Sequence record: NC_007819.1
DNA from: Escherichia phage ID32
Direction: 5' to 3' (one strand)
DNA: 6,071 nucleotides
The notes under the pieces were generated by a model. The model had not been told where the DNA came from and ran no database searches. It saw nothing but the letters and a program-made list of their open reading frames with translations. A program made the position numbers and the translations under genes. Numbering within the stretch: position 1 is the first letter of the stretch; each line of letters begins with the position of its first letter. Positions 1-6,071 of this stretch are shown in pieces.

Positions 1-3
1 TTG

Positions 4-42
4 TTGACATACTCTAATCCCTTATGAGACTCTTGCTTCAAC
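4..42 (+). repeat. Degenerate upstream copy of the gene-A promoter region (TTGACAT...CTCTAA...CTTAT...TGCTTCA); left arm of an imperfect direct repeat with 700-738
   Basis: Direct comparison: 4-42 ttgacatactctaatcccttatgagactcttgcttca versus 700-738 ttgacattcctctaacccaccccttatagtgccttca. Perfect TTGACA -35 hexamer at 4-9, but the -10-like TTATGA sits only about 12 nt downstream, so promoter activity is doubtful. Confidence 0.4.
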
Positions 43-66
43 GAAATGACGCAGGAGTCTTTGCTT

Positions 67-435
67 ATGAAACCCGCACATCGCTTAACCCATCCGGTCC
101 TCGGTTCTTGGTTGTTTAAGTGCCCTGTTTATATCCGTTATGAACACCTTCATCATGGTCGTCTTATTAAGGTTCGTGCCGTTCGCGATTTGTCCCCTCG
201 CCAACAGCTTATTGCTAACCCTAAAAATTGCTTTGATGTTGTTATCGCTGAGATTGATGTTACCTATGGCTCCATCACTTGGTTTGATTATGAGCATGAG
301 GAGTATGACGAGTTTGATCCTGATGTTATAAATGGCCTCGTTAACTACATTGATATTCCTCACGTTATCCGTTCTGAGGAAGACCCTTCTGTCGATATTG
401 ATGATATGGATTGGCTTTATGAAATTGCGGAGTAA
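67..435 (+). CDS. Hypothetical protein, 122 aa, basic N-terminal half and strongly acidic C-terminal half (accessory ORF1 in the H-A region)
   Basis: ORF in the six-frame track (46..435). The ATG at 67 is preceded by AGGAG (55-59) at 7-nt spacing; the ATG at 46 is in frame but lacks an SD. TAA stop at 433-435 lies 3 nt before the next ATG. About 21 of the last 65 residues are D/E (e.g. YEHEEYDEFDPD, SEEDPSVDIDDMDW). No homolog recognised from memory. Confidence 0.55.
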   Translation: MKPAHRLTHPVLGSWLFKCPVYIRYEHLHHGRLIKVRAVRDLSPRQQLIANPKNCFDVVIAEIDVTYGSITWFDYEHEEYDEFDPDVINGLVNYIDIPHVIRSEEDPSVDIDDMDWLYEIAE

Positions 436-438
436 ATC

Positions 439-525
439 ATGGAAACTGTTGTCGGAAAATTTATTGCTTTGGCTATTGTTGCTCTTATGCTGTATGGAGT
501 TTCCCGTTTGATTAGTAGGACTTGA
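439..525 (+). CDS. Hypothetical 28-aa hydrophobic peptide, possible single-pass membrane peptide (METVVGKFIALAIVALMLYGVSRLISRT)
   Basis: ATG at 439 preceded by GGAG (429-432) at 6-nt spacing; TGA stop at 523-525 is 1 nt before the next ATG. Uninterrupted hydrophobic core FIALAIVALMLYGV. Below the ORF-track length cutoff, found by manual translation. Confidence 0.35.
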   Translation: METVVGKFIALAIVALMLYGVSRLISRT

Positions 526-526
526 A

Positions 527-703
527 ATGAAGTATTTTAGCCTTGTGGATGAACACTATGCTTATTGCCCTGATTCGCGCATTTTGCACATCACTCGTAG
601 TCGTGTTTCTGACCCTCGGTATGAGCGTCGTTTTCTTACTGATGAGGAGCATTTTGCGCTTTTGGATTGGTTAAAGAGTCGCCCAACATACATTAATTCT
701 TGA
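527..703 (+). CDS. Hypothetical 58-aa protein, Arg-rich (MKYFSLVDEHYAYCPDSRILHITRSRVSDPRYERRFLTDEEHFALLDWLKSRPTYINS)
   Basis: ATG at 527 preceded by AGGA (517-520) at 6-nt spacing; TGA stop at 701-703 lies inside the -35 hexamer of the gene-A promoter. Manual translation; not in the ORF track because under 60 aa. Confidence 0.45.
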   Translation: MKYFSLVDEHYAYCPDSRILHITRSRVSDPRYERRFLTDEEHFALLDWLKSRPTYINS

Positions 704-729
704 CATTCCTCTAACCCACCCCTTATAGT
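700..729 (+). promoter_or_regulatory. Sigma70-type promoter for gene A (P_A): TTGACA (700-705), 18-nt spacer, TATAGT (724-729)
   Basis: Consensus -35 hexamer and near-consensus -10 read directly; position immediately upstream of gene A matches the known P_A location in phiX174-like phages. Confidence 0.6.
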
Positions 730-759
730 GCCTTCAAAGTATTACTTTGAGGGCTTTTT
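730..759 (+). promoter_or_regulatory. Stem-loop plus T5 run in the gene-A leader; stem overlaps the gene-A SD (GAGG 749-752)
   Basis: GCCTTCAAAG (730-739) pairs with CTTTGAGGGC (745-754): 10 bp with one G-U, 5-nt loop, followed by TTTTT (755-759). Lies between the P_A -10 and the A start codon at 763. Confidence 0.5.
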
Positions 760-762
760 CCT

Positions 763-4959: not shown

Positions 4960-4986
4960 AAGGCTGCCGCACTCCCGGTTAGATGC

Positions 4987-5063
4987 CTGCCCAGTGTAGG
5001 GCAGACCGAGCCGTACGGAGATACCCGATAAACTAGGAACGTGGAAGGCGCAAGCCGCCTTCC
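4987..5063 (+). other. Stem-loop cluster in the 134-nt G-H spacer; candidate primase-dependent complementary (-) strand origin
   Basis: CTGCCC-agtgta-GGGCAG (4987-5004), palindrome CCGTACGG (5011-5018) and GGAAGGCG-caagc-CGCCTTCC (5043-5063) read directly. I recall St-1/phiK/alpha3 minus-strand origins being mapped between G and H, but cannot confirm this. Confidence 0.45.
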
Positions 5064-5093
5064 CTCCTGCTAAGCCCAAAAGGAGTTACAGCG

Positions 5094-6071
5094 ATGTTAG
5101 GTGCCGTTGTAGGTGGTATTGCTTCAGCCTTAGCTGGTGGAGCCGCTTCTAAGCTGTTTGGTGGTAAACCTGCCGCTCAAGCCGCTACCGAGTCCTCTGG
5201 CCTTTCTAATGGTCAAGGTGTTATTGGTATGGATCAAGATGCCGGTATTCAGTCCGCTATTCAGGGCTCAAATGTCCCAAATGGTCAGATTCCTGCTCCC
5301 ACTACCACAGGCGGTGTTATGTCTGATGCTGGCAATATGATTAAGAATGCTGGTAAAGATTTGCTTGATGGTGTCATGACTGCTGGTAGTGACCGAGTTA
5401 AGCAGGCTTTGATTGATAAGTTAGGTGGCAATAATGCAAAGAGACAAGGACAAGCAACCCGTGATTACTTGGCTGCGGCCTTCCCTGAGCTCAACGCATG
5501 GGAGCGTGCTGGAGCTGGTGCTTCCGGCGCCGGTTTGGAATCTTCCAGCCAGGACCAACAGAAAGAATTAATGCGGATGCAGCTGGACAACCAGAAAGAT
5601 ATTGCGAAGATGCAGATGCAGAATAATTTGCAGATTGCAGGCATCCAGTCCGCTACTTCTCGTCAAAATACGAAGGATTCTGTTTATGCTCAGAATGAAA
5701 TGCTTCAGTACAATCAGCGTGAGTCGCAAGCGCGTGTTGAGTCCATCCTTGCCAACACTGACCTTACGGCTAAACAGGCCACCCATGAAATTATGAGAAT
5801 GGCTCTTACTCGTGCTCAGGAAACTGGTCAGCATTTGACTAACTCTCAGATTATGGCATTGGAGAAAAAGGTTTATGCAGAAATCGGAAAAATTCACCAA
5901 GATACTCAAAACGCTCGTTATGGTAGCTCTCAAGTTACTGCTGCGGCGAAAGATGTTACAAATATGATTTCTGATGCTGCTGGTGGTGTTGCCGATTGGG
6001 CTTCTCAGCAGTGGAATTCTTTCTTTAAGGATGGCAAGTCTAATGGTATTCCTTTAAATACCCGAAAATAG
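5094..6071 (+). CDS. H: Minor spike / DNA pilot protein H, 325 aa
   Basis: Gly/Ala-rich N-terminus (GGIASALAGGA.SKLFGG) and long matches to phiX174 H (TRDYLAAAFPELNAWERAGA, IAGIQSATSRQNTKD.VYAQNEML, QNARYGSS); AGGAG at 8 nt upstream; stop is the last codon of the window. Confidence 0.93.
   Translation: MLGAVVGGIASALAGGAASKLFGGKPAAQAATESSGLSNGQGVIGMDQDAGIQSAIQGSNVPNGQIPAPTTTGGVMSDAGNMIKNAGKDLLDGVMTAGSDRVKQALIDKLGGNNAKRQGQATRDYLAAAFPELNAWERAGAGASGAGLESSSQDQQKELMRMQLDNQKDIAKMQMQNNLQIAGIQSATSRQNTKDSVYAQNEMLQYNQRESQARVESILANTDLTAKQATHEIMRMALTRAQETGQHLTNSQIMALEKKVYAEIGKIHQDTQNARYGSSQVTAAAKDVTNMISDAAGGVADWASQQWNSFFKDGKSNGIPLNTRK

Follow-up and report, generated by a model that had tools for sequence, protein, structure and literature searches.

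Whether the region between genes H and A of Escherichia phage ID32 (NC_007819.1) encodes proteins, and what those proteins might do, is the question raised by this locus. The stretch analyzed here, referred to as the window, is 6071 nt in length and is the complete circular genome of an alpha3-like microvirus of the genus Alphatrevirus. Numbering begins with the base after the gene H stop codon, such that H occupies 5094-6071 and gene A starts at 763. The best whole-genome matches were WA13 and WA45 (94%) and ID21 (93%), and the genome-wide identity to WA13 agrees with the alpha3-like assignment made in a first-pass annotation of the sequence. Within the 760-base H-A region lie three open reading frames (ORFs) on the plus strand: ORF1 (67-435, 122 amino acids from ATG67), ORF2 (439-525, 28 amino acids; 29-30 in relatives) and ORF3 (527-703, 58 amino acids). 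Together they cover 83% of the region, and they are separated by 3 nt (436-438) and 1 nt (526); these recomputed coordinates agree with the ORF lengths and gaps reported in the first-pass annotation. We consider it likely that the region holds three genuine, Alphatrevirus-specific accessory protein genes that form one coupled unit.

ORF length and base composition gave a first indication of coding potential. When positions 1-762 were shuffled 2000 times with dinucleotides preserved, only 0.55% of the shuffles contained an ORF of at least 122 amino acids, and a 58-amino-acid ORF by itself is unsurprising (28% of the shuffles). T at the third codon position makes up 54-55% of ORF1, ORF2 and ORF3, compared to 38-64% in A, D, F, G and H, which bears out the proposal that codon usage in the three ORFs resembles that of the core genes.

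Conservation of the frames was assessed in 28 distinct aligned H-A regions, taken from 14 GenBank genomes, IMG/VR and metagenome contigs, and Logan contigs with divergent ORF1 variants; one further divergent lineage, L042, was considered beside them. ORF2 was intact with an ATG start in all 28 sequences and in L042, as was ORF3, which is exactly 58 amino acids long in 26 of the 28. ORF1 was intact in 26 of 27 full-length sequences, the exception being St-1, with a 1-nt deletion (~230 in L011). The 1992 alpha3 entry X60322 (L017) also has a broken ORF1, at ~195, but the alpha3 genome resequenced in 2005 (DQ085810) is intact, and the break is probably due to sequencing errors in the old entry. 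Thus no frame-breaking indel was seen in ORF2 or ORF3, and one was seen in ORF1, despite local nucleotide diversity of up to 37%. The ratio of nonsynonymous to synonymous substitution (dN/dS) was 0.19 for ORF1 (bootstrap interval 0.14-0.25; 0.063 for its N-terminal half) and 0.13 for ORF3 (0.075-0.21), whereas the other frames of both gave 1.1-1.9. In the same genomes the canonical genes gave 0.05 (A), 0.05 (C), 0.11 (D), 0.145 (H), 0.21 (F) and 0.52 (G). Purifying selection on ORF1 and ORF3 is as strong as on the canonical genes. Because their dN/dS values are low relative to the off-frames and comparable to those of canonical genes, ORF1 and ORF3 are judged protein-coding beyond reasonable doubt on comparative grounds. 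The first-pass annotation had argued for a real coding module rather than a random open frame, and had named scattered frameshifts or stops with no dN/dS below 1 as the pattern that would contradict it; the alignment shows open frames and low ratios instead.

The same data bear on the possibility that the region is a cis-acting DNA or RNA element, serving replication or membrane attachment or being of the 'reduction' type (compare the H-A region of phiX174), in which the ORFs are incidental. The phiX174 H-A intergenic region does have cis-acting roles, and two stable hairpins flank the ORF1-3 module. However, the concentration of substitutions at synonymous sites of one frame is not explained by a DNA element. 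Frame-breaking indels are also lacking, beyond the single nucleotide lost from ORF1 of St-1. The region, as single-stranded DNA, also folds no better than its shuffles (z +0.6) and has no match in Rfam. We regard a cis-acting element with incidental ORFs as extremely improbable.

The three genes appear to be confined to one genus. The genome as a whole matches 569 phage records, but by tblastn the module matched only 25, all of them Alphatrevirus, and tblastn against plasmids and bacterial (GTDB) genomes found no relatives of ORF1-3. A word search of 5.8 billion proteins and an exhaustive profile search of 1.84 billion representatives returned only alpha3-like contigs (~6-kb genomes), L042 among them. 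The tBLASTn search and the H-A alignment were both checks suggested in the first-pass annotation, and they found matches confined to Alphatrevirus and conserved frames. By these searches, ORF1-3 are specific to Alphatrevirus. That phiX174- and G4-like phages lack the module, and that ORF1 of St-1 is frameshifted, argues for an accessory status, and since phages of the first two types do without it, ORF1-3 are unlikely to be virion or replication components.

The most divergent lineage, L042, is a 1962-nt Logan contig (SRR20337160) with the same layout as the window (H, ORF1, ORF2, ORF3, A). Its proteins are 85% (H), 83% (A), 91% (ORF3) and 78% (ORF2) identical to those of the window, but its ORF1 product, the distant relative P0029 found in the exhaustive profile search (E = 8.5e-16), is only 39% identical, with motifs retained. 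An ORF1 of 39% identity beside near-identical ORF2 and ORF3 indicates a much higher rate of evolution, or of exchange, in ORF1 than in its neighbors. ORF3, in turn, shows stronger conservation than the essential proteins H and A, and this argues for a role of importance in nature.

If the three ORFs are genes, each should have a plausible start signal. ORF1 is preceded by a Shine-Dalgarno (SD) motif, AGGAG (53-57, plus strand), 9 nt before ATG67. Of the 26 relatives whose start can be compared, 25 have AGGAG 6-9 nt from the ATG, and ID62 has TGGAG. An in-frame ATG46, which would give 129 amino acids, was rejected as the start since indels between 46 and 67 break the frame in relatives, and comparison of the relatives identifies ATG67 as the conserved start. 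The SD of ORF2, GGAG (429-432, plus strand), is made of the last sense codons of ORF1 and lies 6 nt before the ATG, with motif and distance kept in 25 of the 28 sequences. ORF3 has AGGA (516-519, plus strand) 7 nt before its ATG, replaced by GGAGG in relatives with a GTG start; in 27 of 28 sequences the start is preceded either by GGAGG (5-6 nt, GTG starts) or by AGGA (7-8 nt, ATG starts), and phiK reads TTGAGG. The first-pass annotation had placed an SD 6-7 nt before each ATG; the motifs exist and the spacing is right for ORF2 and ORF3, but for ORF1 it is 9 nt.

Stop and start codons of adjacent ORFs are closely spaced throughout the sequence set. The ORF1/ORF2 junction reads TAA-N3-ATG, with N0 in L042. 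At the ORF2/ORF3 junction, 20 sequences have a GTGA overlap with a GGAGG SD, and eight have an ATGA overlap or a 1-nt gap with an AGGA SD. In every configuration seen, the stop/start distance is within 0-4 nt. Retention of this tightness across independent junction rearrangements supports translational coupling, and ORF1-3 may thus be read as one translationally coupled unit. The first-pass annotation had likewise seen the signature of a translationally coupled operon, to which the relatives add tight junctions in three configurations and SDs placed within the upstream genes.

Transcription signals were found mainly at the two edges of the module. A promoter scan of positions 1-900 identified a single promoter-like site, the sigma-70-type gene A promoter (700-729, plus strand; TTGACA, 18 nt, TATAGT; 11 of 12 consensus positions), and its -35 hexamer contains the ORF3 stop codon (TGA, 701-703). 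A terminator-like hairpin and TTTTT come next (730-759, plus strand; hairpin 730-754, 11 pairs, inverted repeat I1), directly before the A start codon (ATG, 763), with a predicted RNA fold of -15.3 kcal/mol (z -3.8). In phiX174, the gene A promoter and a terminator hairpin are also located just before the A start, and window positions 700-762 resemble that cassette in having TTGACA, a -10 hexamer, a GC-rich hairpin, a T-run and the A ATG. The phiX174 and G4 spacers differ in being only a few tens of bases long and having no genes, whereas that of the window has ~700 nt, three genes and a bracketing 12-nt direct repeat.

At the other edge, an RNA hairpin (26-61, plus strand) contains the ORF1 SD in its 3' arm and is followed by a T-rich run, TCTTTGCTT in the window and TCTTTTTT in most relatives. 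Its predicted stability is -18.9 kcal/mol (z -4.8) in the window, -20.1 (z -6.5) in alpha3 and -20.8 (z -6.4) in WA13, and all 22 distinct sequences compared, L042 among them, retain the stem. A consensus scan did not call the hairpin, though the stem is strong and conserved. On its sequence and position, we consider it a candidate leaky terminator after H and/or a translational brake that occludes the SD.

The direct repeat that brackets the module has the consensus TAATT(G/C)TTGACA and modest statistical support. The upstream copy (1-9, plus strand) comprises 12 nt when the H stop codon at 6069-6071 is included (TAGTTGTTGACA; TAATTGTTGACA in most relatives), and local alignment against 690-762 located the downstream copy, TAATTCTTGACA, at 694-705 on the plus strand. 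The copies match at 10-11 of 12 positions, with shuffle p values of 0.002-0.03 in most genomes and no significance in two. The TTGACA at 4-9 was considered as a promoter for the module and rejected, as it has no usable -10 hexamer and the scan calls nothing there. When 1-69 was compared to 694-765, the start region of ORF1 was seen to echo the architecture of the gene A start (TTGACA, CTTAT(G/A), hairpin, T-run, ATG). The flanking repeat and the repeated start-region architecture suggest that the module may have arisen by insertion into, or duplication of, an ancestral short H-A cassette; the repeat itself only hints at this origin.

These features allow a scheme for expression of the module to be proposed. 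Transcription of phiX174 starts from promoters pA, pB and pD and passes leaky terminators. By analogy, as no promoter was found between H and ORF1, the module would come last, at the 3' end, on rightward transcripts that extend through H. The hairpin at 26-61, with its T-run, would let only a fraction of these transcripts pass and would bury the ORF1 SD. Ribosomes ending ORF1 might then restart at ORF2 across TAA-N3-ATG, and those ending ORF2 might restart at ORF3 through GTGA, ATGA or the 1-nt gap, with low, fixed-ratio synthesis as the outcome. The hairpin at 730-754 would close the transcription unit of H and the module before gene A.

Several points weigh against the reading of ORF1-3 as three coupled genes. 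Support for the 26-61 hairpin consists of near-total invariance and one compensatory pair, rather than covariation, and its U-tract, clean in alpha3 and most relatives (UCUUUUUU), is interrupted in the window (UCUUUGCUU). Transcription or translation data for alpha3-like phages were not found in the searchable literature. A fusion of ORF2 to ORF3, described below, is known from one 761-nt contig only, which might be an artifact of assembly or a defective variant. Lastly, dN/dS of ORF2 is 0.37 with an interval (0.13-1.09) that spans 1, and the +1 frame in 442-513 gives a lower value, 0.15 (0.05-0.38).

This last observation raises the question of which frame is translated at the end of ORF1. 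A candidate +1-frame ORF of 30 amino acids, ORFx (419-511, plus strand; MKLRSKSWKLLSENLLLWLLLLLCCMEFPV), overlaps the end of ORF1 and ORF2. It is conceivable that only ORF1 and ORF3 are genes and that in 419-525 ORFx replaces ORF2 as a small membrane peptide, or that both are translated as an overlap similar to K/A and E/D. ORFx is open with an ATG in all 28 sequences and in L042, and has a basic N-terminus and a Leu-rich helix. Synonymous divergence in 442-513 is only 0.16, compared to 0.69 in ORF1 and 0.43 in ORF3. The real A/K overlap, used with other overprinted genes for calibration, shows a pattern like that of the +1 frame and ORF2 (K 0.15, A 0.79). The T content of ORF2 at third positions is 55%, versus 21% for the +1 frame; low T at third and high T at second positions, however, likewise characterize the genuine overprinted genes E and K.

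Other evidence favors the ORF2 frame. In 21% of synonymous resamplings the ORFx frame remains open by chance, a conserved Tyr-Glu of ORF1 dictates its ATG, and ORFx lacks a good SD. The same substitutions that in ORF2 cause nearly all conservative changes (I/V, F/L, A/V, S/A) read in the ORFx frame as L>P twice, E>G, S>L and one stop loss. ORF2 has its canonical GGAG, its stop follows the ORF3 start through the three junction configurations, and gene callers choose it. The universal ATG, the SD, native codon composition, the conservative changes and the tracking of the ORF3 start by its stop thus favor ORF2, which is likely, from these sequence features, to be a genuine gene. A gene set in which ORFx replaces or joins ORF2 is not favored, but we give it a real, if minor, chance. 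The ORF2 product follows the pattern METV[IV]GK[FL]IALA[IV]VALMLYG..R, which describes a single hydrophobic helix with a basic C-terminus (grand average of hydropathy 1.29), and it is probably a small membrane peptide.

A larger gene set has also to be considered. Conserved +1 ORFs are present at 549-674 (41 amino acids) and, as a long frame within ORF1, reach 123 amino acids in WA13; with ORF1-3 they would make a five-gene model and may account for the 'five' frames of Rokyta et al. (2006). Dismissal of the +1-frame ORFs by dN/dS was given up after calibration on E and B, which gave 1.13 and 2.8 in their own frames. Because real overprinted genes score at or above 1, dN/dS is unable to dismiss the +1 frames, and synonymous resampling and start/stop retention were used in its place. 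By these measures, chance accounts for the 41-amino-acid ORF in 33% of resamplings, although almost every sequence keeps it open, and the ORF has lost its ATG in two of the 28 sequences and its stop in one. The long frame within ORF1 is intact only in WA13, WA45 and MG945254 and is fragmented elsewhere, and the extra +1 ORFs lack SD motifs. T-rich third positions place T in the middle of +1 codons, and this is why the +1 frames are open. The five-gene model is therefore improbable, and three genes remain the preferred count.

How much of this had been recognized previously? Conserved reading frames of alpha3/WA13-like phages were described by Rokyta et al. 2006 (J Bacteriol 188:1134), as cited by Wichman & Brown 2010 (PMC2935103). 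As far as that account goes, its 'five conserved reading frames' belong to the same phage group and, by inference, to the same H-A region, the only long stretch without canonical genes; they are likewise conserved, of unknown function and outside the standard 11-gene table. Relative to those five, whose identity is inferred, the present analysis finds three frames with a coding signature, treats the others as +1 by-products and keeps 419-511 as a candidate. The alpha3 record of Kodaira (M25640) marks four ribosome-binding sites in the H-A region, the Lilleven record MK629527 annotates hypothetical coding sequences of 122, 29 and 58 amino acids at exactly the module positions, MG945254 flags two, and automatic gene calls on metagenomic contigs return the same trio. 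The Rokyta-set, alpha3, phiK and St-1 records list canonical genes only, as does a 2026 isolate paper (PMC13029530). The first-pass annotation had supposed that the region is treated as non-coding and the module as unannotated. This holds for most records, but the frames had already been recognized in Rokyta et al. 2006, M25640 and MK629527.

The Lilleven proteins QBZ71502, QBZ71503 and QBZ71504, beside which public protein sources yielded no other named entries, are orthologues in the same order and position, with ORF1 74.6% and ORF3 84.5% identical to the window. Lilleven differs in having the GTG/GTGA junction and another allele of the ORF1 C-terminus, and its isolation paper does not discuss the trio. 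The existence of conserved frames in the H-A region is therefore already known. Added here are the narrowing of the 'five frames' to three that carry a coding signature plus one candidate overlap, the hypervariable segment of ORF1 and its 39%-identical allele, the putative SD-occluding hairpin, and predicted structures that are confident and unmatched.

ORF1 has two contrasting halves. The N-terminal half is basic (isoelectric point 9.8) and highly conserved, whereas the C-terminal half is very acidic, with a net charge of -17 over 58 residues, and ends in a conserved DDMDWLYEIAE. Within ORF1 lies a hypervariable segment (307-381, plus strand; codons 81-105) that includes a predicted surface helix (residues 85-95). 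Its nucleotide diversity, 0.32-0.37, is the highest among the coding segments measured (G 0.27), and sliding dN/dS peaks there at 0.86; its only indel is a 2-codon deletion in three sequences. The segment comes in discrete allelic types, whose recombination is independent of the remaining genome, and this pattern of hypervariability points to an interaction that may be under diversifying pressure. The AlphaFold2 (AF2) model of ORF1 is confident, predicts a compact beta-rich domain, and has a template modeling (TM) score of 0.96 to an independent BFVD model of the Lilleven orthologue. In certain alpha3-like genomes from metagenomes (L036 1201-1665, also L037; proteins P0009 and P0015), an insertion of ~100 nt gives ORF1 a 32-amino-acid N-terminal extension, MKPLTSSEI..., for a total of 154 amino acids.

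Exchange between lineages is also evident in the window itself, which by segment comparison is a three-way mosaic of closest relatives. The segment from H through ORF1 is closest to ID21 (94-96%), the ORF2/ORF3 junction (100%) and ORF3 (95%) to NC29, and A through G to WA13/WA45 (96-98%). Because the closest relative changes from ID21 to NC29 between ORF1 and the ORF2/ORF3 junction, at least one recombination breakpoint lies inside the module.

ORF3 was modeled by AF2 as four beta-strands and a C-terminal helix (predicted local distance difference test score 80), with no informative fold match. A shared beta4-alpha topology made the N-terminal half of ORF1 and ORF3 candidate paralogues, an idea rejected on an hhalign probability of 0.85%. 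One 761-nt ENA contig, P0022, encodes an in-frame fusion of the ORF2 helix to ORF3 (78 amino acids), apparently created by a ~26-nt deletion across the junction. This fusion weakly suggests that ORF2 and ORF3 act together at the membrane and would fit an action of ORF3 on the cytoplasmic side, next to ORF2. In the 90% cluster of protein P0028, a 450-amino-acid archaeal M28 peptidase stands beside a 56-amino-acid ORF3 variant, almost certainly a clustering artifact of the collection.

What the proteins do can be addressed only tentatively. It is possible, though we would not expect it with any assurance, that the products act together at the inner membrane and are directed at the host or at competitors, e.g., in superinfection exclusion or counter-defense. 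In such an arrangement ORF2 would serve as the anchor in the membrane, ORF3 would form the conserved core, and the hypervariable acidic segment of ORF1 would provide the specificity surface. Two negative results count against this proposal. Searches of Pfam, PHROGs, PADLOC, NCBIfam and PDB gave no significant match for ORF1, ORF2 or ORF3 (weak PHROG hits only, E 0.03-0.3, and none in PADLOC), and neither the ORF1 nor the ORF3 model had a significant fold neighbor.

The acidity of ORF1 permits another interpretation, in which it is a DNA-mimic anti-restriction protein of the Ocr/ArdA kind for growth on K-12 and B strains, with ORF2 and ORF3 unrelated or auxiliary. The charge of its C-terminal half is what such a mimic might show, its hypervariability fits an arms race, and St-1, phiK and Lilleven were propagated on K-12, while phiX174 and G4 use the restriction-less E. 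coli C. Yet ORF1 resembles neither Ocr nor ArdA nor any other solved protein in sequence or fold, and its predicted fold is compact rather than an elongated mimic. The window genome has no EcoKI (AACN6GTGC) or EcoBI (TGAN8TGCT) sites on either strand, so that there would be little to protect, and the K-12 phage St-1 is precisely the one with a frameshifted ORF1. We consider an anti-restriction role of this kind quite unlikely.

The proposed membrane-associated module can be compared with several known kinds of small phage genes. The K and E genes of Bullavirinae share with it small size, a hydrophobic helix (as in ORF2), accessory character, tight packing and overlapping stop/start signals. 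In contrast, K and E are overprinted, with 16-19% T at third positions, while ORF1-3 occupy their own space, and there is no sequence similarity. With phage moron modules and with type I toxin or superinfection-exclusion peptides, the module shares a genus-specific insertion at a gene boundary, flanking transcription signals, tiny products that include a ~30-amino-acid hydrophobic peptide with a basic tail, and mosaic exchange between lineages. The resemblance is by analogy only, as no promoter of its own was detected for the module in the window and there is no homology. More speculatively still, the module may be a self-contained, low-expression three-protein system of a new kind, with a membrane complex of ORF2 and ORF3 and a diversifying, novel ORF1 subunit, directed against host defense or competing microviruses and perhaps including an overprinted ORFx. 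If true, ORFx would be a further case of gene overprinting in Bullavirinae.

With three genes as the favored reading, one of the three genera of Bullavirinae, the textbook '11-gene' phages, carries three extra conserved orphan genes that make up ~10% of the genome and that nearly all reference records, RefSeq entries among them, leave out. Bullavirinae are a workhorse of experimental evolution and synthetic genomics, so the gap touches annotation and genome design, and it affects fitness-landscape studies that score H-A mutations as 'intergenic'. The question is directly testable, since the genes are small, the phages easily engineered and knockouts straightforward.

Two other non-coding regions of the genome were noted. 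The C-D spacer (2481-2523) is the most variable stretch of the genome, with a diversity of 0.52, and is longer by ~190 nt in NC29 (L006 2480-2712; genome 6259 nt) and by ~30 nt in NC3. The G-H intergenic region (4960-5093, 134 nt) is unusually conserved for non-coding sequence, with a diversity of 0.082 where the genome averages 0.136. Two strong hairpins form in its fold (z -1.9), and the region is presumably the primase-dependent complementary-strand origin described for alpha3, St-1 and phiK.

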